Positions 11,708-25,471 of a DNA stretch of 64,000 bases are shown here, piece by piece; position 1 is the stretch's first letter; every line of letters begins with the position of its first letter. Location of the stretch: positions 64,001 through 128,000 of the IMG/VR virus record IMGVR_UViG_3300043446_003177. One strand, 5' to 3'. The stretch is from a virus. The notes below the pieces were generated by a model. That model had not been told where the DNA came from. It did no database searches and worked only from the letters and a program-made list of their open reading frames with translations. Both the position numbers and the translations under genes were made by a program.

Positions 11708-11875
11708 ATGACCATTGACCGAGACCTTACGCAAGAAGAATGGGACGAAATGAATGTACTTCGCAAAGCAATTAATTATAATCCAAGTCAAGTGCATCCA
11801 GACAAAATGCAGCGATTTAGTGAACTTCTAGTTAAATCTATGGGTGGTAACGGCGAACCCACGCGGACAGTTTAG
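11708..11875 (+). CDS. hypothetical 55-aa protein
   Basis: hand translation MTIDRDLTQEEWDEM...RTV; stop lies inside the palindrome at 11865. Confidence 0.6.
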   Translation: MTIDRDLTQEEWDEMNVLRKAINYNPSQVHPDKMQRFSELLVKSMGGNGEPTRTV

Positions 11876-11942
11876 AAAGCGGCACACAGGCGATCCTGGA
11901 GGGGTCTGGTGCCCTTATAATACTCTCATACGCAACGAACCG
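11865..11942 (+). promoter_or_regulatory. palindrome-associated early promoter (copy 1)
   Basis: GGACAGTT-TAGA-AAGCGGCAC, TATAAT at 11916, leader ACTCTCA...CAACGAACCG. Confidence 0.75.
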
Positions 11943-12404
11943 ATGACCACCACCTTCGCTGAGTATTCCGCCCAAGCAGAGGCACGGAAGAACATCGCAG
12001 AGGCAGTCCTGGGGCACACTTATGCTCTATGTGAGGCACTGCGCCAGAACTTCATTGAATACAGCATCAAATCCCATCAGAAGTTTGTTGATGATGCTGA
12101 TACTCATGAGTATCATCAAAAGCAGATTGATAAACTGAGGCAAGGTATTTGTGATTATGAGTTCTACCCTGAAACGGGTCGTAAGTATCATAAGATTATT
12201 ATGATAATTCATAATACTGCTAGTCCTACTGGCACTAGTCGCTCTGTCCATGCTTTTGTAGACAAGAAGACTGGTCAGGTTTACAAGTCTGCATCCTGGA
12301 AGTCTCCTGCTAAGGGTGTTCGCTACGATCTTCGCATTATTGAGCAGCGTGAATGGTTGCTTGAGAATGCTGATTGGGCAGGTTCCTATCTGTACGCTCG
12401 CTGA
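11943..12404 (+). CDS. conserved phage early protein
   Basis: GRKYHKI...SVHAFVDKKTG.VYKSASWKSPAKGVRY. Confidence 0.8.
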   Translation: MTTTFAEYSAQAEARKNIAEAVLGHTYALCEALRQNFIEYSIKSHQKFVDDADTHEYHQKQIDKLRQGICDYEFYPETGRKYHKIIMIIHNTASPTGTSRSVHAFVDKKTGQVYKSASWKSPAKGVRYDLRIIEQREWLLENADWAGSYLYAR

Positions 12405-12412
12405 GGTTAATT

Positions 12413-12721
12413 ATGGCTACTTGGAGAGCGGATGTATTTGTAAATTCTAGAGTTGGTAGAATTACAACTGAAGTTGAAGCAGCAACTTTTGCGGGAGCGA
12501 GAGAGCAAATCTATGCAAAGCATGGAGATGTTCAGCAGATTACAAATCTACATGAAGTGAGAAGTAGTGGCGGTGGTTTATCGTCGTCTGGTGATTATGG
12601 TGGAACTATATGGTTGGTCGCAATTCTATTTGTTATTTGGTTGATTGTTGAATACTGGTACTTTATCGTCCCAGGTGCTATTATACTAGGAATCTTGTAT
12701 TGGTATGGTCGTAATGCCTAG
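12413..12721 (+). CDS. membrane protein
   Basis: GAGG RBS; C-terminal hydrophobic segments. Confidence 0.7.
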   Translation: MATWRADVFVNSRVGRITTEVEAATFAGAREQIYAKHGDVQQITNLHEVRSSGGGLSSSGDYGGTIWLVAILFVIWLIVEYWYFIVPGAIILGILYWYGRNA

Positions 12722-13679
12722 AATTGAAATTTTAGAACAACCTGTAGAGAAACTGGATTCTGTGGAGCAGACATTTGATCTGGTCTATATGGATCCTCCG
12801 TTTGGATTGCAGCGAGACTTTACAATGCAGGAGGAAGATGGTCAAGAAAAGGGATTTAGTGATAATTGGAATTCATTTGATGAGTATATTGATTGGTATG
12901 CTGGTGTTATTAATAATTGCTTCTCAAAGTTGAATAAAGATGGTTGGTTGTATGCACACAATAACTTCATTGGTAATGCTTTAGTATTGTCTAAAGTTGA
13001 TCCTAAAGTTCGTGATGCATTCTATACTAATATTTCATGGAAACGTAGTGGCCCGAAGAATAATTTAAAGAATGGGTGGGGGAATATTGTAGACAGTATT
13101 ATTGTACTCAGAAAAGGTAAACCTTACTTTGAAGTTGAGTATGGATCTCTGGATCCAGTATATGCAGCAAATAGTTTCAAGAACAAGGATGGGGTTGGAT
13201 ATTACGCTCTTGCAAAGGTGACTGGAGAAAAGAGTCGTCCTTCTGCTCGATTTGAGTATAAAGGATATAATCCTCAGTATGGTTTCCGTATAACAAGGGA
13301 AAAACTGGAAGCATTGGACGCTCAGGGTCTGTTGCACTACGGCGCAAATAATATCTACAAAAAAATCTATTCTCATGAGTCCAAAGGTGTTCCCGTACAA
13401 AATTTGTGGGATGACGTGTATTTTATCAGTAGAAGTGAGCAGAATAAGCGTAAGTACCCAACACAAAAGCCTTTGAAGTTGTTGGAGCGTATTATCAAAT
13501 CATCTTGTCCTGTTGATGGATGGGTGTTGGATCCTTTCTGTGGATCTGGAACTACTGCGATTGCTGCGTTTGGTTTGGATAGAAATTGTGTTACGATGGA
13601 TGTGAATCCAGATGCTGTTCGCATTGCTCAAGAGGCGATATCTGAACTAAATAATCCACTTGTTTCGCAATTCCAATGA
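12714..13679 (+). CDS. N6-adenine/N4-cytosine DNA methyltransferase (beta class)
   Basis: DPPF motif IV N-terminal; YPTQKP and DPFCGSGTT motif I C-terminal. Confidence 0.92.
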   Translation: MPRIEILEQPVEKLDSVEQTFDLVYMDPPFGLQRDFTMQEEDGQEKGFSDNWNSFDEYIDWYAGVINNCFSKLNKDGWLYAHNNFIGNALVLSKVDPKVRDAFYTNISWKRSGPKNNLKNGWGNIVDSIIVLRKGKPYFEVEYGSLDPVYAANSFKNKDGVGYYALAKVTGEKSRPSARFEYKGYNPQYGFRITREKLEALDAQGLLHYGANNIYKKIYSHESKGVPVQNLWDDVYFISRSEQNKRKYPTQKPLKLLERIIKSSCPVDGWVLDPFCGSGTTAIAAFGLDRNCVTMDVNPDAVRIAQEAISELNNPLVSQFQ

Positions 13680-14044
13680 TTAAAAACATTTTAATCGCCT
13701 GTCTATTCATTCCTCTACCTGCTGTTGCTCAACAGGTGAATGAATATGATGTTTGTACGAGGTATAGAGAAACCTATGTACCTGGATATTATGATTCATA
13801 TGGTAATTACATTTCAGGCCGAGTAGAATCCGAATCATACAAAGTTCCTTGCGGAACTGGTTATCGAAACAATCCAGAACCTCAACCAAGATATAGGAGA
13901 CAGGTCTATTGTGATCCCACTCGTTCAATTTTAGGTGCAGGACTTGGTGGTGGTCTTGGTGCGATCTTTAACAATTCCAATACTCGTCGCTATACAGTTC
14001 CGATTGGTGCTGCTCTAGGTGGAATTGCCTTTGGATGCAACTGA
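13676..14044 (+). CDS. secreted glycine-zipper protein
   Basis: signal peptide ending AVA; GAGLGGGLG...IGAALGG. Confidence 0.7.
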   Translation: MIKNILIACLFIPLPAVAQQVNEYDVCTRYRETYVPGYYDSYGNYISGRVESESYKVPCGTGYRNNPEPQPRYRRQVYCDPTRSILGAGLGGGLGAIFNNSNTRRYTVPIGAALGGIAFGCN

Positions 14045-14048
14045 GTCT

Positions 14049-14131
14049 GTACCAGTGTGGGAACTGTCCACTCTGCCCCTGACTCTGCCCCACTCTGCCC
14101 TATAATTACAAGGTAATCAACGAAACGCCTC
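14049..14131 (+). promoter_or_regulatory. palindrome-associated early promoter (copy 2)
   Basis: GTACCAGTG-TGGG-AACTGTCCAC, three ACTCTGCCC repeats, TATAAT at 14101. Confidence 0.75.
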
Positions 14132-14542
14132 ATGGGAACCCGCGCTCGCATCGGTCTTGAACTTAAAGATGGTTCTATCCTCTCTGTGTATCATCACTGG
14201 GATGGTTATCCTGAGTGGTTGGGTCGTATTCTGAAGACACACTACAATTCACGCTCTCTTGTTGCTGAACTGATTGATGGTGGCGATATGTCTTCCTGCT
14301 GGACTGATGAGCGTTGGGATGATAGTGGTGTGAAAGGTGTTTATGGTCCTGAATACTACTCTCAGCGTGGCGAAAATTGCCCTCCTCGTCACGATAAAGA
14401 CCTGATGGAGTATCTTCAAAACGGTGAAGAGTATGCCTATGTTTATACTCAATCCGAAGGTTGGTTGTGCTATGATACTTGTAATTGGCGCAATTCCTAT
14501 TTGGAAGGTGTCGAAATTCCCTCTGCTGCCCTTGCTGTTTGA
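14132..14542 (+). CDS. conserved phage early protein
   Basis: MGTRARIG...SVYHHWDGYPEWLG...EEYAYVY. Confidence 0.8.
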   Translation: MGTRARIGLELKDGSILSVYHHWDGYPEWLGRILKTHYNSRSLVAELIDGGDMSSCWTDERWDDSGVKGVYGPEYYSQRGENCPPRHDKDLMEYLQNGEEYAYVYTQSEGWLCYDTCNWRNSYLEGVEIPSAALAV

Positions 14543-14545
14543 CCC

Positions 14546-14734
14546 ATGAAAACTTCTACTGCCCTTGGCGTTGTATTTGGCGCTGTTGTTATTGTTACCG
14601 CTAGTCTCTTACTTGAGGCCTGGTTGCTTGGATTGATTCTGTCTTGGTTCGGTGTATCGCTGACTTTCTGGCAGAATTTTGCTATAATCTTTCTTGCAAA
14701 CCTCATTTTTAAGAACACCAGTGGATCGAAATGA
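14546..14734 (+). CDS. small two-TM membrane protein
   Basis: hydrophobic throughout. Confidence 0.65.
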   Translation: MKTSTALGVVFGAVVIVTASLLLEAWLLGLILSWFGVSLTFWQNFAIIFLANLIFKNTSGSK

Positions 14735-14735
14735 A

Positions 14736-14876
14736 ATGACTGCACTTGAAGAACTTCGATTTGAGAACTTCATTGAGGAGTATGAGCGTCTTGCTTCTGA
14801 ACTGGATGTAAATACGCTCTACTACACTGAAGAGTTTGTTAATTTGACTAAAACCCAATTCACGAGTACAATTTAG
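14736..14876 (+). CDS. small acidic protein
   Basis: A.EL...YY..EFV motif shared with 19169-19303. Confidence 0.6.
   Translation: MTALEELRFENFIEEYERLASELDVNTLYYTEEFVNLTKTQFTSTI
14844..14872 (+). promoter_or_regulatory. sigma70-like promoter
   Basis: TTGACT-17-TACAAT. Confidence 0.7.
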
Positions 14877-14895
14877 GAGTAGTTTCAAACAAACA

Positions 14896-15138
14896 ATGAA
14901 GTATTTTTATCTGGTTGATTATTGGGTTCCGTTTCCATCTTCTGAGTATGGTGGTGTCGTCAGTGTTATTGCGGAGAACGATAATGAATGTCATGATGTT
15001 CTGTTAGAATGGCGTGATGAGTATGAAAACACTCATGATAGTCGCATTATGGAGAATGTAAGTAAGGCTCTTCGTTTCCGTCTTGATTCTGTGCATGACG
15101 ATGAAGAATCGAGAGTTGTTGATTCATTCACGACTTAA
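14896..15138 (+). CDS. conserved cyanophage hypothetical protein
   Basis: YLVDYWVPFPSSEYGG motif. Confidence 0.75.
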   Translation: MKYFYLVDYWVPFPSSEYGGVVSVIAENDNECHDVLLEWRDEYENTHDSRIMENVSKALRFRLDSVHDDEESRVVDSFTT

Positions 15139-15142
15139 TCTC

Positions 15143-16341
15143 ATGTCTGAATACAATCCAAACAGCATGGCGCGGCAACTGAAACAACAATACCGAGAAC
15201 GTATTGAGTATCTTCAGGAGCAAATCATCAATCAACAAAAAGAGATCATCGAATTGCAAAACATTATTAAACAATTGACGGAGGGTAAAGAGTATGATTG
15301 CTGATATGATTGTCGATTATTCTCAACATCTTGAGTCAGGTAGAGTTTGGAAGGTTGAGGTTGAGATTCCAATCGAACTTGCAGAGGAAGATGAGCATCT
15401 AGCATCTGAGATTCCAAGTTCATTGTATATTGACTGTTACGTTATCGCACCTGATCGTGATCTTGCCGATTATATTGCGAAACGAATTTATCCTGATTAT
15501 TTGTCTGTTTGTATTGGTGATGATCCCGAACTTCCCGCATAAAGCACCGAAGCATTATGAATACTCTTTTGAAAAGTTTAACGCTCGTTACGTCGCTGTT
15601 TATTTGCACGATCATCGGACGTATGACTATAACCTGGGTAAACCAATTCGGTGCATCTGGGGATTCTATCATTCCAAAACAGGAAACTACCACGCCCCAA
15701 TCAATGCAACGTCAGTGGGTGATGTAGTGAACATTTCGACTACAACTCCATATAGTGCGATGCAACTTAAAACTACACCTTTAGAGAGAGCATTTATCTA
15801 ATCATGCAATTTGCAGAAGGAACACTCGTCAAATACAAACAACACATTGGTACAATTGCTTTTGTGGATGATGGTTGTTTAACGATCTGCATTGCTAGAA
15901 ATGAACACAAGTCTACTGAGGTAAGAATTGTTGTTTATCGCTCTGAATTCAAAGACATTGAACTGTTCAAACAATCACAAAAATGAATCTTTCACCTAAG
16001 TATGTTATTGCGATTGTAAGTGGATTTGCATTGATTCTCATTTGGAATGCATTTCTAATTGTACGTGATACAAAGTTATTAAAAGCGTATGATGCCTGCA
16101 CACAATTTACTCATCATCCCGATTGTCCTTATTCAAAATGACTGAAGATTTTGTAAAACTGAATGTCCATGAACTTGGTATTCTTTTAGCTGCTCTACAA
16201 CTTGTTGATTTGCGAGAGGAGCATTTAATTGCGAAACAGTATGGAAGTGTTCCTGCACTGTATAACAAACTTTATACTCTCTTTGAGCGAATGGACACTT
16301 CACAGACTGTCCTACGCAACGATGTGGTGCCGTCCTTCTGA
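15143..16341 (+). other. six coupled small hypothetical ORFs (15143-15304, 15294-15542, 15520-15801, 15804-15986, 15983-16141, 16138-16341)
   Basis: ORF track plus hand translation; overlapping starts and stops. Confidence 0.65.
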
Positions 16342-16372
16342 CCTATAATACAGAGGTAATCAAGGGAACACG
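16292..16372 (+). promoter_or_regulatory. palindrome-associated early promoter (copy 3)
   Basis: TGGACACTT-CACA-GACTGTCC, TATAAT at 16344. Confidence 0.7.
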
Positions 16373-18050
16373 ATGAAACACCCTATCACCCTCACCTCTG
16401 GTGAATTGTTAGATGTTATTGCTGCTCTTGAGGTGAATGAAGATGAGGCATATTGTATCAAAGATGATCCTCAACTTGCCGCATATTATATGAACCTTGC
16501 AGTGAAGTTTCAAAAGATATATGATCTACTTCAAGGTATTCCTGGTGAAGATCGTATTGCTGAACTTGTGGTCTCTTCTACTGAACTGAAATGATTACCG
16601 ACACTATCCAAGACAAACAGATTCGCCGTTCGATTGTGAAAGCAGTTGAATCGATGGATCTGCGCCTGCTACAGCGTATTGCCTATGAGGTACGTTGTGA
16701 AGAAATGGGTCTTTATCCTGATGGTTGGAAACTTTATCCTGAAAACTGATGGCTCTTTCAAGTTCCACAATTCAACGTCTTGCTGATGCACTTGCTGATG
16801 ATGTTGCATCTTATATTACCGAGGACGAGCGATTTTTTGAGTTAATGATTGAGTTGATTCCTGATGCACTTTCTGCTAAATTAGGTGATCTGGATCACAA
16901 TGTTGCTGCTGAGTTATCCTGTTGTATTTCTGAACGTTTACGTCTTTTAGCCTCATGATTTCGATACTAACTTCATTGTTTCTCACGACACCTCCTGTTG
17001 CACCTAAACCAGTGGTGTATCGACCTTTCATTTATGAGACCCCTTGTTTATTAGAGTATGGTCTTCAAACCTATCCTGATACTTGTAAGGTTGTAGAAAC
17101 CCGAGAACCAGGCGGCGCTCTTCGCACAAGGAACATTTACTCTAATAAACATCGTCTCACAATCAAAGGTCGATTTGATAAAACTCAAGGATATATGACT
17201 TGGGATAGTCATAATAAGTATGAGTATAAGTGGGAGTATAAAGTTGGTGGTAATCAAGAGTCTGGTTCATGGACTTATGTGATGCCTGGATTCCTATTGC
17301 AAAATGTAAGTTGGGACTGATGCAAGTTACTGAACATAATCTTCATGAGACTGATCTAAGTCTTAAAGACATTAATGAACTTATTCGTTTAGTTAAACAA
17401 GAGAGTCATAATCATAAAGGTGATTCTGCTCGTTTATTGTATTATGGAGTTCTGATTGGTAAGTTAGTTTGTATTCGACACGATCTATTATGAAATTTGA
17501 AATTAGTTATCTCAAACCAAAGAAGAAAGGATACGCTAAACAAAGTGCAGTCTTTTATCAAATTGAAGATGCAATGATGTGGGAAGAGTATGTAAAACAA
17601 AGAGGTTGTAAAGAAGTTCAATTAATGGTAAAATGAAAGATAAGTCATTATGGAGATGGTGGGCTAAAGCATTAGGTGAGAAAGCAAGTAAGTGTGATAA
17701 AGAGTCAGATAAGATTGCATTGATTCGCACTACAATTTTTTTCACTTATTTGATTACTAACTGTTTCATTGTTGCAGGTGTAATTCGACATTGGAACGAT
17801 TCAACAAATATTGAAATCTTTATTGAGAATCCTTATGAAACAAGACAACAAATACAACCAATTAAAAGCATATCTATCCCTCAAGTATGATTACTATGCT
17901 TCACTTGGAAAGTATGAACTTGGTGAGAGAGAAGACTCCGAATCAGAACATAAGTGGAGACTGATCTCTGATATTATGGAATTCATTGATGGTATGGAAA
18001 TCAGGGAAGAAATCAATCAAAATAAGGTTAATACATTAAAAATCATTTAA
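16373..18050 (+). other. eight coupled small hypothetical ORFs (16373-16594, 16591-16749, 16749-16958, 16955-17320, 17320-17493, 17490-17636, 17633-17890, 17835-18050)
   Basis: mostly ATGA/TGATG overlaps; 17633-17890 has WAKALGEKA...SDKIALIRT plus a TM helix. Confidence 0.65.
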
Positions 18051-18151
18051 AAATGTATTAAAAAATATATGTGTGTTTATTATATGGTTCTCAATAAGCA
18101 TGAAATAGTTGAGAATCAATAAGGTTACGTTGTTGAGAATGTCTTCTAATA

Positions 18152-18192
18152 CCTTATAAAACCCTCCAGTATTCCTTATAAAACCCTCCAGT
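18152..18192. repeat. tandem 19-bp direct repeat CCTTATAAAACCCTCCAGT x2
   Basis: exact copies at 18152-18170 and 18174-18192. Confidence 0.9.
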
Positions 18193-18275
18193 CCTTGTGA
18201 TCTTAGCGTGCTTTCTATCACAAGAACCGAAAAAAGTCAAGCCCCCGCGAAAAAAGTTCCCAGACCCACACAAAA

Positions 18276-18645
18276 TCTCGACGAGACTTGACGCCAGAAT
18301 CTAGTCGAGATATAATACACACAAGGCATCATAAATCTAGTCGAGATATCCTGCAATAATCTCGTCGAGACCTCATGCATCATTATATCAAGCATTCATA
18401 AATCTCGACGAGATATGCAACAAATCTCGACGAGACTACACAACATTCGTCATCATAATACATCACAAATCTCGACGAGATACACTGCAAATCTCGTACA
18501 TCTCGTGCATATTATACACATAATCTCGACGAGAATGTGCATGAATCTCGTGTGCATTTCGTGACGAATCTCGATGCATATGCATATATACTTTCATATG
18601 CACGTCTCGATACATATGTACGGTTGACACGTGATCTCGTGCATG
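18276..18645. repeat. array of TCT(C/A)G-W-CGAGA palindromes (8 full sites plus 6 half sites) in non-coding DNA
   Basis: full sites at 18276, 18300, 18336, 18360, 18403, 18425, 18470, 18524; half sites at 18492, 18501, 18546, 18569, 18605, 18635. Confidence 0.92.
18288..18316 (+). promoter_or_regulatory. sigma70 promoter firing into the repeat array
   Basis: TTGACG-17-TATAAT. Confidence 0.8.
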
Positions 18646-18652
18646 TTATTAT
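18624..18652 (+). promoter_or_regulatory. sigma70 promoter with extended -10
   Basis: TTGACA-17-TATTAT with TGn. Confidence 0.8.
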
Positions 18653-18685
18653 ATGTACAGTTCAAACACAGGTACACAGGTTCTT

Positions 18686-18847
18686 ATGGCTTACATGCAA
18701 AAGCAGAAGTACAGGATTACACTGGAAATGGATGTACTAGAAGACTTTAATCCTCATCAGATTGATTGGACAGAATTATTTGATCTTGGTGGAGATGAGA
18801 ATGTTACCGCTTATATTGAAGACCTGAGTAGAGATCGAGTCTGGTAA
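18686..18847 (+). CDS. conserved small cyanophage protein
   Basis: QKYRITLEMDVLEDFNPHQIDW. Confidence 0.7.
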   Translation: MAYMQKQKYRITLEMDVLEDFNPHQIDWTELFDLGGDENVTAYIEDLSRDRVW

Positions 18848-18894
18848 TTATACCACAAATTCACCAGATCTGAGGAGATTTATAAAATCTTAAT

Positions 18895-18924
18895 ATTCTC
18901 AATAAGACCTTCGTTATTGAGAAT
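18895..18924. repeat. perfect inverted repeat ATTCTCAATAA-N8-TTATTGAGAAT
   Basis: 11-bp arms read directly. Confidence 0.8.
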
Positions 18925-18926
18925 GA

Positions 18927-18984
18927 GGACAGTTGGGGAACTGGCACAGTACTAGTTGCGAGCCCCCTGGTGATGGGTTATTAT
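18927..18984 (+). promoter_or_regulatory. palindrome-associated early promoter (copy 4)
   Basis: GGACAGTT-GGGG-AACTGGCAC; TTGCGA-17-TATTAT. Confidence 0.75.
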
Positions 18985-19007
18985 ACATTTGTCGTCGGGA
19001 ATTCACC

Positions 19008-19166
19008 TTGAAAGACATTCGCATTCGTGTTGAAACCTACGATGGTTTGTGTACAATTTGGTATGAGCGTTCAAAGTTAAAGAATGCTTGCGATGTGATC
19101 AGCAAGCGTGTATACAACCAACTCTGTGGTTTAAACATCAAAGAAGTCAACGTTTCGGTAATTTGA
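19008..19166 (+). CDS. small hypothetical protein
   Basis: TTG start downstream of promoter copy 4. Confidence 0.55.
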   Translation: MKDIRIRVETYDGLCTIWYERSKLKNACDVISKRVYNQLCGLNIKEVNVSVI

Positions 19167-19168
19167 TT

Positions 19169-19303
19169 ATGTGTGGTCCTGCTTTTGAGTATACTCGGGA
19201 AGATTTCCTGAATGATGCATCCCAAGAAGAATGGGATGAATGGGAACAGAAAGCGGCAGAACTTGAGCTGCCGTTGGATTACTACCTCGCTGAGTTTGTA
19301 TAA
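19169..19303 (+). CDS. small acidic protein
   Basis: EEWDEWEQKAAELELPLDYYLAEFV. Confidence 0.65.
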   Translation: MCGPAFEYTREDFLNDASQEEWDEWEQKAAELELPLDYYLAEFV

Positions 19304-19311
19304 TATTCCAT

Positions 19312-19665
19312 TGTGACGATCTGAGAACTGGTCCACACCCCCTTGCGGGATCCCCGAATTCGTTCTACATTGCATTCGTTCCTGAGAAACAAGCAAATGC
19401 GTCCTGTTGCTGTTCATCCCGAGAAAAGCATTCGTTTCACCAAACACGCTGCATTTTGGTGTGAGATGATTAATCTGTACAAGAGGAACTATCCGACTCA
19501 TTCGTTTCGTCAAATCGCTGAACATTTTGAATTGAGTGAGACGAATGCCCGTCGTTATTACTACGGCATTCATCACCACAATGCAGGGTATTTTGGTTGT
19601 GGGTATACTCAATTCCGTGAGGGGGCATGTGTGACGATCTGAGAACTGGTACATACCCCCTTGCG
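19312..19665 (+). repeat. 36-bp direct repeats (promoter copies 5 and 6) bracketing one gene
   Basis: TGTGACGATCTGAGAACTGGT(C/A)CA(C/T)ACCCCCTTGCG at 19312-19347 and 19630-19665, 34/36 identical. Confidence 0.9.
19397..19642 (+). CDS. helix-turn-helix DNA-binding protein
   Basis: SFRQIAEHFELSETNARRYY HTH pattern. Confidence 0.7.
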   Translation: MRPVAVHPEKSIRFTKHAAFWCEMINLYKRNYPTHSFRQIAEHFELSETNARRYYYGIHHHNAGYFGCGYTQFREGACVTI

Positions 19666-19746
19666 TTCCACGACCTGGGGGTGTTAAGTTGGTTTCGTGG
19701 TTGAGAAACGCATTCTCCCACACTGTTCTTTGCTCTCTACACTAAC

Positions 19747-20073
19747 ATGGAACTGACCAAATCTTTCCCCCCTGCTGATGATCTTGTGACTAAACTTTCT
19801 GCAATTGATTATCAAAAGCATTTTCATAAGTACATGGATATCGTTGAAACTGTTGTCGTTTATGTAGCTGCTATTGCTACTGTTCTCTGGGATAAGTTTC
19901 AAACCGTGAAGATCACCACTCCTGATATCATCTCTGAATATTTCTACTTCAACTTCAACATGCGTCGTGAATTTGGTGATGAATTCATTGGCGTGAGTGT
20001 TGGTAACCGTTACTTCGGGATTTATGATAACTCCGCTCAGTGGGGCATCCTGGACGAGAATGGTGCGCTCTGA
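19747..20073 (+). CDS. hypothetical protein with a hydrophobic segment
   Basis: downstream of promoter copy 6; stop lies in the next repeat. Confidence 0.7.
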   Translation: MELTKSFPPADDLVTKLSAIDYQKHFHKYMDIVETVVVYVAAIATVLWDKFQTVKITTPDIISEYFYFNFNMRREFGDEFIGVSVGNRYFGIYDNSAQWGILDENGAL

Positions 20074-20144
20074 GAACTGGCACATGGGGGGTTGATCTGC
20101 CCCCCGATCCCTGATACATTACATTCGTACCTGAGAGGCACACC

Positions 20145-20279
20145 ATGTTTGATGAACTCTGGAGTGAGATTCAAGACGCCCCTGGTGAAATCTTTGATCT
20201 CCCCGAATTGCGTGAGTTTGATGATCAGTTCGATGATAAAAGTTTCGGTGATTTCCTGAACTCCAACAATGACTTCTGA
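20145..20279 (+). CDS. 44-aa highly acidic protein
   Basis: hand translation MFDELWSEIQDAPGEIFD...; 14 D/E versus 2 K/R; GAGG RBS. Confidence 0.65.
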   Translation: MFDELWSEIQDAPGEIFDLPELREFDDQFDDKSFGDFLNSNNDF

Positions 20280-20280
20280 A

Positions 20281-20433
20281 ATGCAATCGATCAAAGAGTT
20301 CTTTAGTGATTCTGAGTGGGATCTGATTTATGATCTTTTAGAAAGCAATCGTCAGTTTGATACTGATGAGTCGTATGCTGAAGATTACGACACTGCTCTG
20401 AAGAAAATCCGCGATCTCTTTGAGGAAAAGTGA
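20281..20433 (+). CDS. 50-aa acidic protein
   Basis: hand translation MQSIKEFFSDSEWDLIY... Confidence 0.65.
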   Translation: MQSIKEFFSDSEWDLIYDLLESNRQFDTDESYAEDYDTALKKIRDLFEEK

Positions 20434-20678
20434 TGAACAACAACGCTAAGACTTGGACCGATGATTTCTCTACTCTGGTGGAGAAGTATGCCGAGTTCGT
20501 GATGGACGGCATGGATTGGAAGACTATGGAACAGTTCGTATTTGATACATTGGTTTCCTCTTACAATGAGTATTCTGAGGAAGAACTGATTAGTGAGATT
20601 CGTGAGTGTTATGATGATGAAGTCCTGGAAAGTTTCGGCGTAAAGATAACAGATGGTCCTGAGGATGTGACGGCCTGA
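20433..20678 (+). CDS. acidic conserved cyanophage protein
   Basis: YAEFVMDGMDWKTMEQF...EELISEIRECYDDEVL. Confidence 0.7.
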   Translation: MNNNAKTWTDDFSTLVEKYAEFVMDGMDWKTMEQFVFDTLVSSYNEYSEEELISEIRECYDDEVLESFGVKITDGPEDVTA

Positions 20679-20732
20679 GAACTGGCACATGGGGGGTTGC
20701 GGTCCCCCCCTTTTTCGTGCAATACTAACAGT

Positions 20733-21620
20733 ATGAAAAACACACACATCGAACACCCCGAAGATTCCATCCTGAACGGTGATCTGACCGTGCTGGATTG
20801 GTTCGTGAATGAGGGTAACCTCAGCGTCAAGATTGATGGTGCTCCCGCCATTGTGTGGGGTAAGAATCCTGCGAACGGTGAGTTCTTTGTGGGCACCAAA
20901 TCTGTGTTCAACAAAGTTAAAATCAAGATCAATCATTCTCATGAAGAAATTGATGCGAACCACCAAGGGAAGGTTGCAGAAATTCTTCATGCTTGTTTTG
21001 ATTGGTTGCCTCGTACAGAGTTTATCTTTCAAGGTGATTTTATTGGGTTTGGTGGTAGCGATGAGTATACTCCTAACACGATCACTTATAAGTTCCCTGA
21101 GGTAGTTGATCAGGAGATCATTGTTGCTCCTCATACATTCTACACTGCAGAGAATGACCTTCGTGATGCTGTAGCGCATCCGATGAACTTTATCATCACG
21201 GATACTCATTATGTGAAATTTGTGAAACCCCGTGCATACATTCTGCACGGTCAAACGTCGTTCGCTGATGTAGAAGAGGTGTGCAACTTCGCCCGTCAAA
21301 TGTCTACTACTGTGGACTTCGTTGAGGGTAAGCAACTTTCCGAACTGAAGAAGCAACTCAACGCCTGCATTCGTGAGGGTCGTGAGATTCAAGATGATGC
21401 ATTTGATTGTGATGCTAACCTGATTCGTTTGTGGAAGTTGGTTAAGAGCATCAAGGAAGATTGCCTGTTCCTGTGTCGCAATGATGGTCCTGCAGCGTAC
21501 ATCGTACAGGATCGAATTGATGCCGAAGGTTATGTGATGACCAATGAGTTTGGTATGTTCAAACTGGTGAATCGTGAGGTATTTTCTCACGCCAACTTTA
21601 CCCTGGAAAAGGCATGGTGA
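20733..21620 (+). CDS. DUF6267-like protein with ATP-dependent ligase/nucleotidyltransferase motifs
   Basis: NTHIEHPED, KIDG (motif I), FQGDF, EGYV, FKLV. Confidence 0.7.
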   Translation: MKNTHIEHPEDSILNGDLTVLDWFVNEGNLSVKIDGAPAIVWGKNPANGEFFVGTKSVFNKVKIKINHSHEEIDANHQGKVAEILHACFDWLPRTEFIFQGDFIGFGGSDEYTPNTITYKFPEVVDQEIIVAPHTFYTAENDLRDAVAHPMNFIITDTHYVKFVKPRAYILHGQTSFADVEEVCNFARQMSTTVDFVEGKQLSELKKQLNACIREGREIQDDAFDCDANLIRLWKLVKSIKEDCLFLCRNDGPAAYIVQDRIDAEGYVMTNEFGMFKLVNREVFSHANFTLEKAW

Positions 21621-21652
21621 AGATAAATACCAAAAGTATACTCAATTAGAAA

Positions 21653-21814
21653 ATGGAATATAGAAAAGAGTTAGAAGTAAATGCAGCTGCACATGAAGCC
21701 TCCAAGTTCCTCCTTGATTCATTCAATCAGGCAGTGGTTGGTGATATTAAAGTGCTCTCCAATCCCGACCAGTTGAGAAGTGTGCCAGTTGAGGAAGCGT
21801 CCACTGAGGATTGA
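21653..21814 (+). CDS. small hypothetical protein
   Basis: hand translation; C-terminus VPVEEAST is encoded by the palindrome. Confidence 0.45.
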   Translation: MEYRKELEVNAAAHEASKFLLDSFNQAVVGDIKVLSNPDQLRSVPVEEASTED

Positions 21815-21839
21815 CTTTCCCCCTGATCTGCGCCATACT
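21782..21839 (+). promoter_or_regulatory. palindrome-associated early promoter (copy 9)
   Basis: GTGCCAGTT-GAGG-AAGCGTCCAC; TTGACT-17-CATACT. Confidence 0.75.
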
Positions 21840-21880
21840 ACGTTTGTTCAATTCAATCCGTGTCGAGCACGGCAAACACA

Positions 21881-22633
21881 ATGGGTTTCAAGACTGACGG
21901 TTCTGTTCACCACGGCGGTGTGAAGAATGAGGATCTCACCGTTCGTATTCTGAATGAGATGAAGATCTACGCTCACACTGTAGAAAAGCGTGGCGGTACT
22001 AAGTGTAAAGAAGACGCTGTTGCTGGTGATCAACTGATCAGCATCAAACGCAAGGAAGGCATCAAGAATGGTTCCTTCGATTGGTTCAACACCAGCGCCT
22101 ACAATGATGTGCTGGGTGATACTTTCTCCTCCTTTCTTTCCAATGTGAAAGAGTTGCGCTCGCTGCCTGAAGTGATCCGCAACGATGATGAATTGGTCCT
22201 GAAGATCCGCGACAATTTCAATCAACTTTGTGAGTTGGCGCTGGATAGTCTCAGCAAGGATCAGATTGTTAACATCCTCAAGCGTGGTCTGATTGATAAC
22301 AACTCTGGTTTTGATGTTGTCGTTAACGACACGAAGTCTCAGGAGGTCTACATCTTCTCCGCTGACGATCATCCCGCAGTTTCCTACATCGAACGTGGTT
22401 ACACTCCCGTTCTCAAAGGCAACGGTAAATCTTCCCGCTCTGTCTACTTTGTAGATGCCGAAGGGAATGTGTATGATTGTGGTCTGCGTTTGCGGGTGAC
22501 CAGTAACAACGGGATCAATGCTTTCCTGGGCAACAGTAAAGCAAACTCTAACTCTCAAGTTGTCATCAAACTGCAGCAGGATAAGGTAGCGAATCTCCTG
22601 CAGCAGGTCGATGCCCGTGTGACGGTCTACTGA
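21881..22633 (+). CDS. putative PD-(D/E)xK type II restriction-endonuclease-like nuclease
   Basis: GVKNE...KED...ISIK spacing resembles MspI/HinP1I-type active sites. Confidence 0.55.
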   Translation: MGFKTDGSVHHGGVKNEDLTVRILNEMKIYAHTVEKRGGTKCKEDAVAGDQLISIKRKEGIKNGSFDWFNTSAYNDVLGDTFSSFLSNVKELRSLPEVIRNDDELVLKIRDNFNQLCELALDSLSKDQIVNILKRGLIDNNSGFDVVVNDTKSQEVYIFSADDHPAVSYIERGYTPVLKGNGKSSRSVYFVDAEGNVYDCGLRLRVTSNNGINAFLGNSKANSNSQVVIKLQQDKVANLLQQVDARVTVY

Positions 22634-22699
22634 GTGTCCACTGGGGGGCGCTGCTGCCCCCCTGACCCCCTACAATACTGACAGATCAAACGACCCCCC

Positions 22700-22939
22700 A
22701 TGAAAGTCCAACCCATCGGCAGCAACCAAACCGAGGTGTCCCTGGCAAACGGGACTGAGGTTCTGTTCTCCTATCAGACCCCTGTCGCCGCGCTGGTCCC
22801 TGGTCTGGGGTGGATCCGCACTGACAAGAAGTGGAGCGCCACCACCACCAAGCACATTAACGCCTGGCTGCGGAAGAACTGCGGCGGCGATGTCCAGAGT
22901 GTGCCGCAATGGGAACTGGACCAGTTGGTCGCCTTCTGA
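22700..22939 (+). CDS. conserved small phage protein
   Basis: FSYQTPVAA...WSATTTKHINAWL. Confidence 0.8.
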   Translation: MKVQPIGSNQTEVSLANGTEVLFSYQTPVAALVPGLGWIRTDKKWSATTTKHINAWLRKNCGGDVQSVPQWELDQLVAF

Positions 22940-22980
22940 CCCCCAGACCCCCTACAATATTCTCAGATCAAACGACCCCC

Positions 22981-23121
22981 ATGATCCGCTACGAAGTCCG
23001 CTACCAGACCCCCTACAATCAGTGTGAGTGGCGGTCGCAATGGTTCCGCACTCTGGAGGAAGCGGAGCGCATGGTAGAGTTCTACCGCTCCTGCGGTTCC
23101 CCTGCCCACATCGCTCCCTGA
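22981..23121 (+). CDS. small hypothetical protein
   Basis: own promoter; EAERMVEFYRSCGSPA. Confidence 0.7.
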   Translation: MIRYEVRYQTPYNQCEWRSQWFRTLEEAERMVEFYRSCGSPAHIAP

Positions 23122-23153
23122 TCTGCTACAATACTCTCAACCGCAAACGACCC

Positions 23154-23339
23154 ATGAAAGTTTACGCTGTGATCGGTGGCATTGATTATGAGGGTGAGGA
23201 TTTCGATTCCCTCCGCCTGTTCGATTGCCTCTCCACTGCCGCGGCCTATGCCCGCCAGCTGAAGGATGAGAAGGGGTTCGATTATACCATCCTGGAGACC
23301 CGCGAGGTCTGCCTGGAATCCGCCCTCTGTGCCGCCTGA
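23154..23339 (+). CDS. small hypothetical protein
   Basis: own promoter; MKVYAVIGGIDYEGEDFDSLRLFDC. Confidence 0.75.
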   Translation: MKVYAVIGGIDYEGEDFDSLRLFDCLSTAAAYARQLKDEKGFDYTILETREVCLESALCAA

Positions 23340-23413
23340 GGTACTGTCCACTCGGTCCTGGGAACGACCCTAAACTGCCCTACACTGATCAAGTCAACCA
23401 AGGGAACCAACCC

Positions 23414-23578
23414 ATGCGCTACAACCCCGCCACCGACCGTGCCGTTTCCATCGATGAGATTGCCGCCCAGTGCCGTAACGCTATCCTGAAGGCAGACGCC
23501 TGCCGCGCCATCGACGCCGCCTATGAAGAGATCCTGGAGTTTGCCCGCTGGGAGAATGATGTCCTGATCCCTGCCTGA
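23414..23578 (+). CDS. 54-aa hypothetical protein
   Basis: hand translation MRYNPATDRAVSIDEIAAQC...; own promoter. Confidence 0.7.
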   Translation: MRYNPATDRAVSIDEIAAQCRNAILKADACRAIDAAYEEILEFARWENDVLIPA

Positions 23579-23639
23579 TACAATGGGAGCGGGTGCGCCC
23601 TGAAAGACGCCCAGCACAAACCCTAACCCCTTTGATCGA

Positions 23640-23768
23640 ATGACCCGCGAACTCGCTCTGTCCCTGCTCCGTCAAGGCACCAATGGTGGCCAGATCCTGG
23701 AGATCCTGGACTCTATCGCTGCTGATGATGCCGCGGCCGGTCCGACCGCTGAAGAGATCCAATTCTGA
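23640..23768 (+). CDS. 42-aa hypothetical protein
   Basis: hand translation MTRELALSLLRQGTNGGQILEILD... Confidence 0.65.
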   Translation: MTRELALSLLRQGTNGGQILEILDSIAADDAAAGPTAEEIQF

Positions 23769-23837
23769 ATCTGACCACTGCCCCCCACGGTTCGCCGCTG
23801 GGGGGTTTACACTATGGGAACCAAAGCAAACGAACCA

Positions 23838-23999
23838 ATGCAACGCCTTGACGTGATCTGCCCCTCCGCTCCCTGGGAGAACACTACCACCGATGAGGAC
23901 CGCGCCTGGGATCTGTGCCTGTCGCTCTCTGAAGAGTATGGGTACGCTCAGGTCCGCCAGAATGGGGTGATCATCGGAGACTACACTGAGGGGCGCTGA
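23838..23999 (+). CDS. small acidic hypothetical protein
   Basis: own promoter; CAAACGAACCA leader. Confidence 0.7.
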   Translation: MQRLDVICPSAPWENTTTDEDRAWDLCLSLSEEYGYAQVRQNGVIIGDYTEGR

Positions 24000-24039
24000 C
24001 CCCCGACCTGCTACAATACTCTCAACTGCAACCGACCCC

Positions 24040-24267
24040 ATGGGCATCCCCGTCAACTGCAACGATTCCGCCAGCGTCTGGACTCTGAGCGCCAATCCGA
24101 TCACCGGTACCGTCCGGGTCCGCTGGTTCAATGCCCCCACCATCTGCTACCGTCACGAGGGCATCTCCCGCCGCGCCATCCTGTCGCTGCTCTGGGATTC
24201 CAACCGCTCGCTGGGACAGTGGGTAAACCGTCACTGCCTGCAGTCCCATGTGACCCTGACCGCCTAG
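24040..24267 (+). CDS. KTSC-like domain protein
   Basis: S..V....V.V.W....YR...I....I..LL....S.G.W.N pattern. Confidence 0.5.
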   Translation: MGIPVNCNDSASVWTLSANPITGTVRVRWFNAPTICYRHEGISRRAILSLLWDSNRSLGQWVNRHCLQSHVTLTA

Positions 24268-24293
24268 GATACTCTCAACAGCAAACGACACAG

Positions 24294-24488
24294 ATGACCG
24301 AAGACCGCCTGCTCTCCCTCTACGATCAACTGCTCGCCCTGGCCGAGCAGATCGCTGAAGAGTCCTACGGATGCGACCTGGACCGCCTGGACCCTGAGCA
24401 TCTGGAATTTTACGGTGCCCGCCTGACGGAGGATAACCTGGAGGATCTGGCTGCTGATCTGGCCGCGGCCGCCTGGTTTGAGAACTGA
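24294..24488 (+). CDS. highly acidic helical small protein
   Basis: own promoter; D/E-rich. Confidence 0.7.
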   Translation: MTEDRLLSLYDQLLALAEQIAEESYGCDLDRLDPEHLEFYGARLTEDNLEDLAADLAAAAWFEN

Positions 24489-24529
24489 CCTGCGACCTGC
24501 TACAATACCAAAGCAACCGACACCGACCC

Positions 24530-24727
24530 ATGGCCCTCTACAACATCGCCACCGATCTCCAGACCCGCCAGACCGTATGGGTCAGCACCAACGTCGCCAA
24601 GGGTCGCCCCCAGCTGAACTCCCACCGGGATGATGGTGCTGGCCGTTCGCTTGCTTCCCATGGCGTTGACGGTCTGAGCGCCGCCGAACTGGCAGGTCTG
24701 CACACTGACTACGTTGGGCGGGGTTGA
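24530..24727 (+). CDS. small hypothetical protein
   Basis: own promoter; RQTVWV motif. Confidence 0.7.
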   Translation: MALYNIATDLQTRQTVWVSTNVAKGRPQLNSHRDDGAGRSLASHGVDGLSAAELAGLHTDYVGRG

Positions 24728-24775
24728 CCCCCCCCTCCCCGTGCTACAATACTCTCAAGTCAACCGACCCGACCG

Positions 24776-24952
24776 ATGATCCTCTCCCAAGCATCCCGCC
24801 TCACCGATCGCCAGACCGTGTGGGTTGCCCGCAGGAATGACGACACCCCCTTCTACAAACTGACCACCGACTATGGGGTGCCCGCCACCGTATGGGCAGC
24901 GCAGTTCGCTGAGGTGTGCGCCGCCGACGTGCAACCGATTCAATGGGGGTGA
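24776..24952 (+). CDS. 58-aa protein paralogous to the upstream ORF
   Basis: hand translation MILSQASRLTDRQTVWVARR...QWG. Confidence 0.7.
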   Translation: MILSQASRLTDRQTVWVARRNDDTPFYKLTTDYGVPATVWAAQFAEVCAADVQPIQWG

Positions 24953-25011
24953 CCCCCCACCTGCTACAATACTCTCAACCCAATCGCCCCGTGTCGATCA
25001 CGGGTCACCCT

Positions 25012-25230: not shown

Positions 25231-25471
25231 AGGGCAGCGGGCAGTGTATGGTATAACGTTATCGTTATGCCCGCCCGCCGCGCCCCCTTATATAAAAATC
25301 GATAACTACCCTAACCTACAACGGACCAAAAGAGCGAGAGAGATATAAAGAGACTGAAAAAATTTTTGGGTAGAAAAAACCGAAAAAGGGGTTTTATAAA
25401 CCTGCATATATAATGGGAAATAACTGAGGTTGTCTCAAAAATTTTTTCGGCGCATAATTCCAGATAATCTT

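Follow-up and report, generated by a model that had tools for sequence, protein, structure and literature searches.

Dyad promoter cassettes in the window

The window analysed here is a stretch of 64,000 nucleotides, positions 64,001 to 128,000 of IMG/VR record IMGVR_UViG_3300043446_003177, from the 172-kb genome of an uncultured T4-like cyanophage. It contains a series of + strand cassettes, each composed of a 24-bp dyad, a spacer and a -10 hexamer. An earlier note had described 13 such dyads, and all 13 were located where it had placed them. For scoring, a weight matrix was derived from IMG/VR relatives alone, with this genome left out; 12 of the 13 dyads reach 13.8-31.7 bits. Spacings below are counted from the start of the right arm to the -10 hexamer.

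Cassette 1 (11863-11942; dyad 11863-11886, 23.6 bits; -10 TATAAT at 11916, spacing 39 nt) precedes the ATG at 11943 of a gene for a DUF7717 protein (Pfam match). Cassette 2 (14048-14131; dyad 14048-14071, 17.5 bits; TATAAT at 14101, 39 nt) lies before phrog_1987 (ATG at 14132), and its spacer holds three CTCTGCCC(C) repeats. A stretch of about 40 nt, which opens within the right arm, spans the spacer and reaches the beginning of the -10, recurs unchanged in the cobS promoters of S-CAM4, S-SZBM1 and S-CAM3, and orthologues on IMG/VR contigs have the same promoter architecture. Cassette 3 (16291-16372; dyad 16291-16314, 21.1 bits; TATAAT at 16344, 39 nt) leads to an ATG at 16373. The best dyad of the genome belongs to cassette 4 (18925-19007; dyad 18925-18948, 31.7 bits), with a -35-like TTGCGA, a -10 TATTAT at 18979 (40 nt) and a start codon that is either TTG at 19008 or ATG at 19042.

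Cassette 5 (19312-19396; dyad 19312-19335, 20.8 bits; TTGCGG; -10 TACATT at 19366, 40 nt) precedes the ATG at 19397 of an 81-aa, helix-turn-helix-like ORF (19397-19642, +), which sits between two dyads. The opening 36 nt of this cassette recur almost unchanged at 19630, in cassette 6 (19630-19746; dyad 19630-19653, 19.8 bits; weak -10 TAAGTT at 19685, 41 nt; ATG at 19747). The 81-aa ORF ends with its TGA (19640-19642) inside the dyad of cassette 6, whose spacer forms a hairpin with a minimum free energy (MFE) of -15.1 kcal/mol. The upstream TGA also lies inside the dyad in cassette 7 (20061-20144; dyad 20061-20084, 20.6 bits; -10 TACATT at 20115, 40 nt; ATG at 20145), where the spacer forms a G6...C6 hairpin that has TTGATC in its loop (-16.0 kcal/mol). 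The same holds for cassette 8 (20666-20732; dyad 20666-20689, 25.2 bits; weak -10 AATACT at 20721, 41 nt), in which a G6...C7 hairpin followed by T5 is terminator-like (spacer MFE -13.2 kcal/mol). Its gene, for a DUF6267 protein (Pfam match), begins with the ATG at 20733; the leader would therefore be very short or absent.

Cassette 9 (21781-21880; dyad 21781-21804, 22.6 bits; -10 CATACT at 21834, 39 nt) precedes a 250-aa ORF with its ATG at 21881. In cassette 10 (22618-22699; dyad 22618-22641, 13.8 bits; TACAAT at 22671, 39 nt; ATG at 22700) the upstream stop is inside the dyad and the spacer, with an MFE of -17.2 kcal/mol, carries a G7...C7 hairpin. Cassette 11 (22900-22980; dyad 22900-22923, 17.6 bits; TACAAT at 22953, 39 nt; ATG at 22981) is followed by cassette 12 (23328-23413; dyad 23328-23351, 13.9 bits; TACACT at 23381, 39 nt; ATG at 23414), whose dyad contains the upstream TGA. 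Cassette 13 (23755-23837; dyad 23755-23778; TACACT at 23808, 39 nt; ATG at 23838) has a strong spacer hairpin (-20.7 kcal/mol). Its dyad, listed earlier as weak at 23756, indeed scores only 4.3 bits with the right arm at 23769, and it may tentatively be assigned to the set, mainly by its geometry and right arm.

The range first proposed, 11865-23813, holds its 13 sites, but the set is larger and includes window sites 2804 and 24226. The former belongs to a cassette at 2790-2849 (dyad 2790-2813, 19.6 bits; -10 TATGAT at 2844, 40 nt), outside that range and with an uncertain start codon downstream (GTG at 2894). The latter, past its end, belongs to a cassette at 24212-24293 (dyad 24212-24235, 18.3 bits; -10 TAGGAT at 24265, 39 nt; ATG at 24294). 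Six further dyad sites lie outside the window, at genome positions 58667, 60491, 61929, 63728, 141886 and 143350. The dyad sites precede + strand ORFs at a distance of 53-103 nt from the start codon, mostly 66-72 nt. Across the whole 172-kb genome, 43 dyad matches of at least 9 bits were found, whereas 30 Markov shuffles averaged 5.0; 20 of these dyads are followed by a -10 at 38-41 nt, while the shuffles averaged 0.27 such pairs and never exceeded 1. By analogy, the genes are probably early, and the region may serve host takeover, as had been suggested.

Form of the dyad, spacing and spacer content

The dyad is a real palindrome, as first described, but the strict string given for it is overly narrow: even with one mismatch allowed, CAGTT-N4-AACTG recovers only 2 of the 13 sites. 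The actual consensus, taken from the IMG/VR relatives, is TGTGMCASTT-N4-AASTGKCACA, which appears in the logo as a symmetric 24-bp palindrome. The best-conserved positions are the C, A, T and G within the CA...TG blocks. At three variable symmetric positions in 228 sites, Watson-Crick pairs number 105, 103 and 124, against 100, 121 and 104 expected, so that the arms display no compensatory variation. This independence of the arms argues for a protein-dimer site instead of a hairpin and supports the view that the dyad would be read as two independent half-sites.

The spacing is well defined. The claimed 39 nt holds for the right arms at 11877, 14062, 16305, 21795, 22632, 22914, 23342 and 23769, and the claimed 40-41 nt for those at 18939, 19326, 19644, 20075 and 20680. 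In 80 related IMG/VR loci (1.1 Mb), -10 hexamers peak at 38, 39 and 40 nt past the right arm (28, 124 and 70 sites), over a background of mostly 1-6 and at most 14 per position. The link between spacing and the -35 fared less well. Although the five 40-41-nt copies do have TTGCG or TTGAT 17 bp before the -10, they are near-identical, recent duplicates, and family-wide the link is weak: TTGACA is matched at four or more of its six positions in 33% of the 40-nt sites and 25% of the 39-nt sites, compared with 7.5% of shuffled spacers. The spacers of the IMG/VR set have no conserved sequence and contain less than 0.35 bit of information at the -35 position. Most dyad promoters have no -35, and their -10 consensus is TAYAAT.

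The spacers are enriched in hairpins, with a mean MFE of -7.6 kcal/mol versus -4.5 kcal/mol after shuffling (228 sites); the value is -8 or lower in 100 of the 228, and a T-run is present in 18. The best explanation is that the spacer often houses a stem-loop terminating upstream transcripts and that, because of these stem-loops and the upstream stop codons within the dyad, the units also act as compact stop-start cassettes.

Occurrence in cyanophages and in host Yfr2 promoters

With the pattern GMCASTT-N4-AASTGKC and at most one mismatch, 8 matches were obtained in this genome and 5 in Syn9; P-SSM2 gave 11, P-TIM40 12 and S-PM2 11, against 0-1 in their reversed-pattern controls, and the pattern is absent from T4 and from Pelagibacter phage HTVC008M. 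In the genome pieces examined, dyads combined with a -10 number 22 in P-SSM2, 13 in P-TIM40 and 14 in S-PM2, and in the small-gene region of Syn9 they precede gp61, gp68, gp73, gp75, gp78 and gp90. The spacing is retained in the IMG/VR loci, and the element occurs in Syn9, P-TIM40, P-SSM2 and S-PM2. The view of the earlier note, a dimeric regulator site near -53 that co-regulates the small-gene region and is unlike the CRP and NtcA boxes, is supported by the independence of the arms, the spacing of 39 +/- 1 nt, the scarcity of -35 boxes and the conservation across cyanophage genera. The dyad promoter is very probably the early-gene promoter type common to T4-like phages of marine cyanobacteria.

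In the study of Syn9 and P-TIM40 by Doron et al. 2016, a new element reportedly drives the early genes and host-like promoters the middle genes, and regulatory elements are said to be abundant and conserved among T4-like cyanophages. To our knowledge, the binding protein is not named there. The dyad is very probably the "novel regulatory element" of that study, and the promoter class has apparently already been published for Syn9 and P-TIM40. As far as the literature citing that work was searched, no description of the motif was found.

The element also has a counterpart in host DNA. Members of the multi-copy Rfam family Cyano-1, regarded here as the Yfr2 family, were found in 34 picocyanobacterial genomes, and 44 upstream regions were scored. 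The best full-matrix match falls 44-51 nt before the start of the RNA model in 37 of these 44 regions, and the best match to the left arm alone falls 58-64 nt before it in 32, many left arms being perfect (TGTGACAGTT, TGTGCCAGTT or TAGGACAGTT). Because the left-arm anchoring uses the phage matrix, the identity of the left arm is partly by construction, and the positional clustering is the independent part. For the right arm, which was not used in anchoring, host and phage correlate at 0.57 in register and at no more than 0.31 when the register is shifted (16 shifts). The right arms of the phage are much stronger than those of the host, so that the two sites are not identical. The strict pattern yields 9 matches in 14.1 Mb of host genomes, none promoter-like, so that site density is about 70 times higher in the phage (8 per 172 kb).

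At yfr2, a palindromic motif termed CGRE1 starts 55-57 nt upstream of the transcription start sites and has GTTG or GTTA flanks (Lambrecht et al. 2018, PMC6191309). The protein PMM1637 was pulled down on CGRE1, its gel shift depends on the motif and on residue R50, and it raised the output of yfr2 and yfr4 promoters in E. coli, though modestly; its homologues are universal in cyanobacteria and exclusive to them (PMC6191309). CGRE1 was mapped onto the dyad by the text description in that paper and by our own alignments, not by the published logo. On this comparison, the phage dyad promoters are best explained as apparent copies of host Yfr2 sRNA promoters in half-site and register, with both arms strengthened. 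No published link between CGRE1/PlmA and the phage element was found in the literature searched.

Candidate binding proteins and comparison with known systems

It is considered somewhat more probable than not that the cassettes are early-type T4-like cyanophage promoters in which the dyad serves as the site of a dimeric regulator, most likely the host protein PlmA, acting as an activator. A palindrome with its centre some 53 bp ahead of the predicted start site, with TAYAAT and usually no -35, would be occupied on both half-sites, along one helix face, by a winged-helix dimer. From this fixed position the regulator would aid RNA polymerase in starting, as an upstream (class I-like) activator. 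The binder could not be named in the earlier note; the likeliest candidate is now PlmA, the only regulator of the GntR family in the host (PMM1637 in Prochlorococcus MED4). One GntR ORF of 334-343 aa is encoded in each of four of five host genomes. PlmA would bind and activate the phage sites early in infection, and in that case the first genes of the phage would be fired by a factor that every picocyanobacterial cell already contains, while the host regulon would be tiny or the host sites degenerate. PMM1637 induces yfr2 conditionally, under nitrogen starvation and high light (PMC6191309), which fits less easily with unconditional immediate-early expression.

A binder encoded by the phage is less probable. 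It could be an activator that is packaged in the virion or synthesised within the first minutes, or else a repressor closing the early genes at the onset of middle expression. On this view the resemblance to Yfr2 would be a secondary matter, unless the phage factor acts on the Yfr2 genes of the host as well. Many phages shut off early genes with repressors of their own, and the higher density of sites in phage DNA, the restriction of the element to cyanobacterial T4-like phages and the two strong arms, versus one in the host, all fit such a factor. However, no conserved candidate was found in the phages tested: none of five cyanophage genomes encodes a GntR domain, and no Ogr/Delta zinc-finger protein is encoded in the phages tested. 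The 81-aa ORF has no Pfam or PHROG match, and a homologue is absent from Syn9 and the 80 related loci. A centre at -53 is also unusual for a repressor, and host Yfr2 promoters share site and register in uninfected cells, where a host protein has been shown to bind (PMC6191309).

It is very improbable that the units are simply terminator-promoter composites whose inverted repeat works as an RNA or DNA stem-loop, mainly to punctuate transcripts and to shuffle small genes by recombination. Such composites would resemble the PeSLs, in which a stem-loop directly precedes an early promoter and which are described from hyperplastic regions of other T4-like phages (PMC4122927). Hairpin-rich spacers, stop codons within dyads, near-identical 36-bp module starts flanking the 81-aa ORF, and a promoter variant of about 40 nt found before cobS in three phages and before another gene here are all in keeping with such composites. 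Yet the arms do not covary and keep a specific sequence, not just complementarity; the dyad is not followed by a T-run; and the strict spacing over unrelated spacers would be needless for a terminator or recombination site. Shuffling may genuinely occur as a by-product, but it leaves the dyad unexplained. Least probable is direct reading of the dyad by RNA polymerase, e.g., by alpha C-terminal domains on an UP-like element without a separate factor: the position (-65 to -42), the often A/T-rich TT-N4-AA centre and the presence of the element in host Yfr2 promoters agree with it, but the conserved CA...TG blocks are not A/T tracts, palindromic symmetry is foreign to UP elements, the host hardly uses the element beyond Yfr2 genes, and PMM1637 binding at the corresponding place in yfr2 was shown experimentally (PMC6191309).

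Among known systems, PeSLs (Arbiol et al. 2010; Comeau et al. 2014, PMC4122927) likewise form compact intergenic units of stem-loop, early promoter, leader and start codon, and their cassettes in hyperplastic regions bound variable small ORFs. They differ in that they have -35 and -10 boxes of the sigma70 type and lack a sequence-specific dyad, whereas here most promoters have no -35, any stem-loop is placed in the spacer, and the dyad itself is not a selected hairpin. Ogr/Delta-dependent late promoters of the P2/P4 type also lack a -35 and carry a dyad, TGT-N12-ACA, near -55, from which the activator contacts the RNA polymerase alpha subunit. The -10-only architecture and the TGT...ACA dyad centred near -53 to -55 are shared, but the dyad here is TGT-N18-ACA, and temporal class and hosts differ. 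With the element of Doron et al. 2016, the present promoters would have in common the motif and spacing seen upstream of small genes in the Syn9 and P-TIM40 hyperplastic regions, the match to the published logo and start-site list being presumed, and the dyad promoter is likewise abundant in related metagenomic phage contigs. With CGRE1/PlmA at yfr2 they share the 9-10-bp half-site TGTGMCAGTT, the N4 gap, a recognisable second arm in register and 39-41 nt to a -10-like hexamer; PlmA acts positively from about -55, and its confinement to cyanobacteria matches the distribution of the phage element. The differences are that the right arm of the host site is weak while the phage sites are near-perfect palindromes, and that the host targets are stress-induced sRNA genes, whereas those of the phage are protein genes presumed to be immediate-early.

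The dyad promoters of the window

The 13 palindromic dyads that an earlier note had placed between 11865 and 23813 were all recovered, each at its own position, and the distances to the -10 hexamer claimed there (39 nt in eight copies, 40-41 nt in the other five) agree exactly. Alignment by the right arms gives the common sequence TGTGMC...TGAG-AACTGKCCAC, and an ORF start codon on the + strand lies 53-103 nt, mostly 66-72 nt, 3' of each of the 13 sites. Several of the local dyads hold, within their gap, the TGA that ends the upstream ORF. When scored with a matrix derived solely from other phages, 12 of the 13 sites reach 13.8-31.7 bits; the site named by its right-arm start at 23769 reaches only 4.3 bits. 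Across the whole genome, the other-phage matrix detects 20 dyads followed by a -10 at 38-41 nt, whereas shuffled sequences average 0.27 and never exceed 1. Besides the 13, the window has sites at 2804 and 24226, and six others are found elsewhere in the genome. Weight matrices were used in place of the literal string, which is too strict: CAGTT-N4-AACTG with at most one mismatch picks up 2 of the 13, and its 7 matches against 2.75 expected are not significant.

Half-sites of 9-10 bp are separated by an N4 gap, the outer GTG...CAC elements are 16 nt apart, and the dyad centre lies at about -53. This half-site length, gap, outer spacing and centre bear out the earlier statement that the dyad is neither a CRP nor an NtcA box, and the geometry rules out a site of the NtcA/CRP family (GTA-N8-TAC or TGTGA-N6-TCACA, centred at -41.5 or -61.5). 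A sigma54-like reading of TGGCAC...TTGC is rejected on direct reading, the gap being 8 nt and not 5; picocyanobacteria are not known to have sigma54.

The record is a single IMG/VR virus entry of 172,232 bp with an estimated completeness of 81%, of which the window covers bases 64001-128000. Its megablast matches are short only, every one to Synechococcus T4-like cyanophages, and neither psbA nor hli was found in this 81%-complete record. The site region is a series of small + strand ORFs located 5' of very large structural genes, as in phage Syn9. Identifiable products are few (DUF7717, an N6/N4 DNA methylase, phrog_1987 and DUF6267), and no known RNA family (Rfam, E <= 0.1) is present in window 1-30000. 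The DUF6267 gene has its best -10, AATACT (20721-20726), ending just 6 nt 5' of the ATG at 20733, and its transcript may be leaderless or nearly so, as opposed to the 20-25-nt leaders of other cassettes. Positions 20000-26000 form a GC-rich island (0.45-0.56 GC versus 0.30-0.40 in the rest of the window) in which cassettes and microgenes are densest and long spurious minus-strand ORFs occur. A separate cluster, at 18276-18534, contains the 11-bp palindrome TCTCG-W-CGAGA eight times within 260 bp, six times exactly and twice with a single mismatch, where 0.63 copies are expected by chance. It lies about 400 bp 5' of the strongest dyad promoter in a stretch with no convincing gene, and its motif is distinct from the promoter dyad.

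Anatomy and distribution of the promoter class

Promoter anatomy was analyzed in 80 IMG/VR loci (1.1 Mb) chosen because they hold an orthologue of gene 14132-14542. The upstream architecture is shared by about half of the orthologues; a different promoter precedes the others. The loci contain 477 non-redundant dyad matches, downstream of which TAnnnT hexamers are most frequent at 38, 39 and 40 nt (28, 124 and 70 sites) over a background of mostly 1-6 and at most 14 per position. From 228 oriented sites, the logo reads TGTGMCASTT-N4-AASTGKCACA, a symmetric 24-mer. At its three variable symmetric positions, Watson-Crick combinations were observed 105, 103 and 124 times, compared with 100, 121 and 104 under independence. 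Because compensatory changes, which a hairpin maintained by pairing would have, are lacking, the arms are, as judged from these alignments, two half-sites under separate constraint, as is typical of sites read by a protein dimer. The same lack of covariation led to the rejection of a hairpin or terminator function of the dyad.

The spacer between dyad and -10 is free in sequence. All of its columns, the -35 position included, carry less than 0.35 bit up to a weak TGC at -5 to -3, and 26% of sites agree with TTGACA in at least 4 of 6 positions versus 7.5% of shuffled sequences, so that most sites have no -35. By this measure the promoters are unlike the host-like sigma70 type, as they have no conserved -35. 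The absence of arm covariation, the fixed 39 +/- 1 nt and the general lack of a -35 support the dimeric operator proposed in the earlier note. Leaders are short and show partial conservation, (A/G)TAAtCAA..AA; the ATG comes 27-32 nt past the -10 start. A second promoter type without an upstream dyad, AAAGTGTCCCTATAGTGTAAGCA, has a right-arm-like AAGTGTCC directly abutting the -10. It was seen just 5' of the phrog_1987 orthologue in loci L023, L024, L026, L035, L037, L038, L046, L053, L054, L058, L059 and others, and stands in for the dyad promoter at this gene in about one third of the related contigs.

Spacers fold more stably than shuffled sequences (mean -7.6 versus -4.5 kcal/mol); 100 of the 228 lie at or below -8, 18 have a T-run, and 4 of the 13 local spacers contain G6-7...C6-7 stems. 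The free spacer would often house a stem-loop terminating upstream transcripts, and the units would consequently double as stop-start cassettes. The dyad cassettes bound small unrelated ORFs. One of these, an 81-aa HTH-like ORF (19397-19642), lies between two almost identical 36-bp module starts consisting of dyad and TTGCG (19312-19348, 19630-19666), and the unit looks like a cassette inserted through recombination between promoter units. In the promoter at 14062, the spacer (14072-14106) is a triple direct repeat, CTCTGCCCC-TGA-CTCTGCCCC-A-CTCTGCCC. Over about 40 nt, as far as the -10 start, the sequence is the same as in the cobS promoters of three phages from three genera (S-CAM4, S-SZBM1 and S-CAM3), and this stretch resembles the Syn9 gp61 promoter (Syn9 44788; compared loci L001, L002 and L003 near 3000-3066). 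This variant lies 5' of the phrog_1987 gene here and 5' of cobS in the three other phages. Given the repeated module starts on both sides of the 81-aa ORF and the promoter variant shared with the cobS promoters of three other genera, the cassettes are probably also recombination points.

Distribution was assessed by counting the core pattern GMCASTT-N4-AASTGKC with at most one mismatch. It matches 8 times in this genome, 5 in Syn9, 11 in P-SSM2, 12 in P-TIM40 and 11 in S-PM2, and is absent (0 matches each) from T4 and the Pelagibacter phage HTVC008M; the reversed-pattern control gives 0-1 per phage genome tested. Fetched 3-kb pieces around the matches contain 22 sites with dyad and -10 in P-SSM2, 13 in P-TIM40 and 14 in S-PM2. 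Syn9 has about 10 dyads followed by a -10 at 38-41 nt, which are located 5' of gp55, gp61, gp68, gp73, gp75, gp78 and gp90 in the small-gene region, with a few elsewhere. The dyad with its fixed -10 distance is conserved in other T4-like cyanophages, in line with the cross-genome check that the earlier note had suggested, and by comparison with T4 and HTVC008M as outgroups the element is a hallmark of cyanobacterial T4-like phages only. Covariation of the right arm with host lineage (first base T in Prochlorococcus) is not claimed, as it is found in P-TIM40 yet not in P-SSM2.

Host Yfr2 promoters and the candidate binder

If the start site is taken as 5-7 nt past the -10, the dyad would occupy about -65 to -42, with its centre near -53. 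A dimeric winged-helix protein bound there would lie on one helix face directly upstream of the polymerase, and an activator in this position would contact it. The constant 39 +/- 1 nt, together with the free spacer sequence, is what such a polymerase-contacting activator would require.

Host genomes were located via psbA, a Syn9 CpeT query having given no match. A strict dyad pattern has 9 matches versus 62 for the reversed control in five picocyanobacterial genomes (14.1 Mb), and none of the 9 is promoter-like or beside a known RNA. The deficit relative to the control could be a composition effect or strong-site avoidance. The absence of promoter-like matches in the 14.1 Mb initially pointed to a phage factor as the dyad binder. 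However, the strict pattern missed the Yfr2 promoters because the host right arms are weak, and the only local candidate, the 81-aa ORF, is not conserved: it has no Pfam or PHROG match and no homologue in Syn9 or the 80 related loci. A phage-encoded binder is the less likely alternative. The homologue of the Syn9 gp230 'transcriptional regulator' present in this genome has no recognisable DNA-binding motif, and an activator of the P2 Ogr/Delta type is rejected since PF04606 is absent at E <= 1 from this genome, Syn9, S-CAM4, S-SZBM1 and S-CAM3.

The Yfr2 promoters were reached through the multi-copy Rfam family Cyano-1, which we take to be the Yfr2 family, located in 5 + 29 picocyanobacterial genomes of 28-65% GC; RF01116 and RF01117 were discarded, being Yfr1 and a microRNA. 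The best phage-matrix match lies 44-51 nt 5' of the RNA model start in 37 of 44 Cyano-1 upstream regions, compared with about 3 by chance. With the left arm alone, the best match lies 58-64 nt 5' of the model start in 32 of 44, often as a perfect TGTGACAGTT, TGTGCCAGTT or TAGGACAGTT. The host right arm is weaker (wAGCGnCCC). With anchoring done without it, its columns correlate with the right-arm columns of the phage sites at 0.57 when in register, and at no more than 0.31 in 16 shifted registers. The host promoters have a -10-like hexamer at 39-41 nt. In six host loci (L220, L223, L224, L226, L238 and L257), a second, 'inside-out' palindrome, CAACTGGCAC-A-GTGCCAGTTG, lies 5' of Cyano-1/Yfr2; it falls at about -40 to -20, 3' of the upstream dyad and 5' of the -10. 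This palindrome consists of the dyad's two half-sites in reversed order and may be a second site for the regulator PlmA with a different, perhaps negative, role.

CGRE1 is a palindromic motif that begins 55-57 nt 5' of yfr2 start sites (Lambrecht et al. 2018, PMC6191309). The GntR-family regulator PlmA (PMM1637 in Prochlorococcus MED4) was recovered by pull-down on CGRE1, its gel shift requires the motif and residue R50, and it increases yfr2 and yfr4 promoter output in E. coli; binding and activation are established for MED4 yfr2 and yfr4 only, and homologues occur in all cyanobacteria and exclusively there (PMC6191309). In the phage promoters, with a predicted start 5-7 nt past the -10, the inner GTT of the left arm would fall at about -56 to -58 and the centre of the dyad near -53, compared with a CGRE1 that begins at -55 to -57. 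Exactly one GntR ORF, of 334-343 aa, is present in four of the five host genomes, and no GntR domain is encoded in the phages tested.

There is an even chance that T4-like cyanophages begin infection with a borrowed regulator, the host's sole GntR protein PlmA, and that their early promoters are strengthened, fully palindromic copies of Yfr2 promoters. No phage protein would then be required for early phage transcription, which would function in any Prochlorococcus or Synechococcus and would be linked to light and nitrogen status, sensed by PlmA via PII-PipX. Induction of Yfr2 by PMM1637 depends on nitrogen starvation and high light, and this conditionality is awkward to reconcile with unconditional early firing. 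No paper tying CGRE1 or PlmA to cyanophage promoters was found in the literature searched, and the link is a testable and apparently unpublished hypothesis.

Significance and relation to known systems

T4-like cyanophages are responsible for killing a large fraction of the main photosynthetic bacteria of the ocean. The launch of their first genes departs from the T4 textbook model: they are not known to have MotA or AsiA, and their early promoters are not sigma70-like. Half-site, gap and register are common to the dyads and the PlmA-bound Yfr2 promoters, which opens the binder question to simple bench tests. If PlmA is the factor, this would name the protein behind the early-gene element reported in 2016, account for early-gene transcription of broad-host-range cyanophages even in resistant hosts, couple the onset of infection to host light and nitrogen signalling, and provide a compact, portable and strong promoter module for marine cyanobacteria.

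The promoters as a class are very probably already known, and the sites of the present genome are additional members. Doron et al. 2016 (ISME J 10:1437) reportedly describe a novel regulatory element governing early-gene transcription in Syn9 and P-TIM40, with middle genes under host-like promoters, and these elements are reportedly abundant and conserved among T4-like cyanophages. The dyad promoter is very probably this element: the same sequence is found in its defining phages Syn9 and P-TIM40, there is no conserved -35, and it is abundant in T4-like cyanophages. In the papers citing or related to Doron et al. 2016 that were covered, the motif is not described. Sullivan et al. 2010 predicted promoters by BPROM only and did not report the dyad element.

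Other systems resemble the dyad promoters in part. The PeSL (promoter-early stem-loop) units of other T4-like phages follow the same cassette logic but have -35 boxes and no specific dyad, whereas here the -35 is not conserved and the dyad is specific. The Ogr-dependent late promoters of P2 are -35-less and similar in geometry; they differ in that no Ogr/Delta protein is encoded here. The CGRE1/yfr2-type promoters match the phage dyads in half-site sequence, register and motif position, and differ in having a weak right arm where that of the phages is strong.
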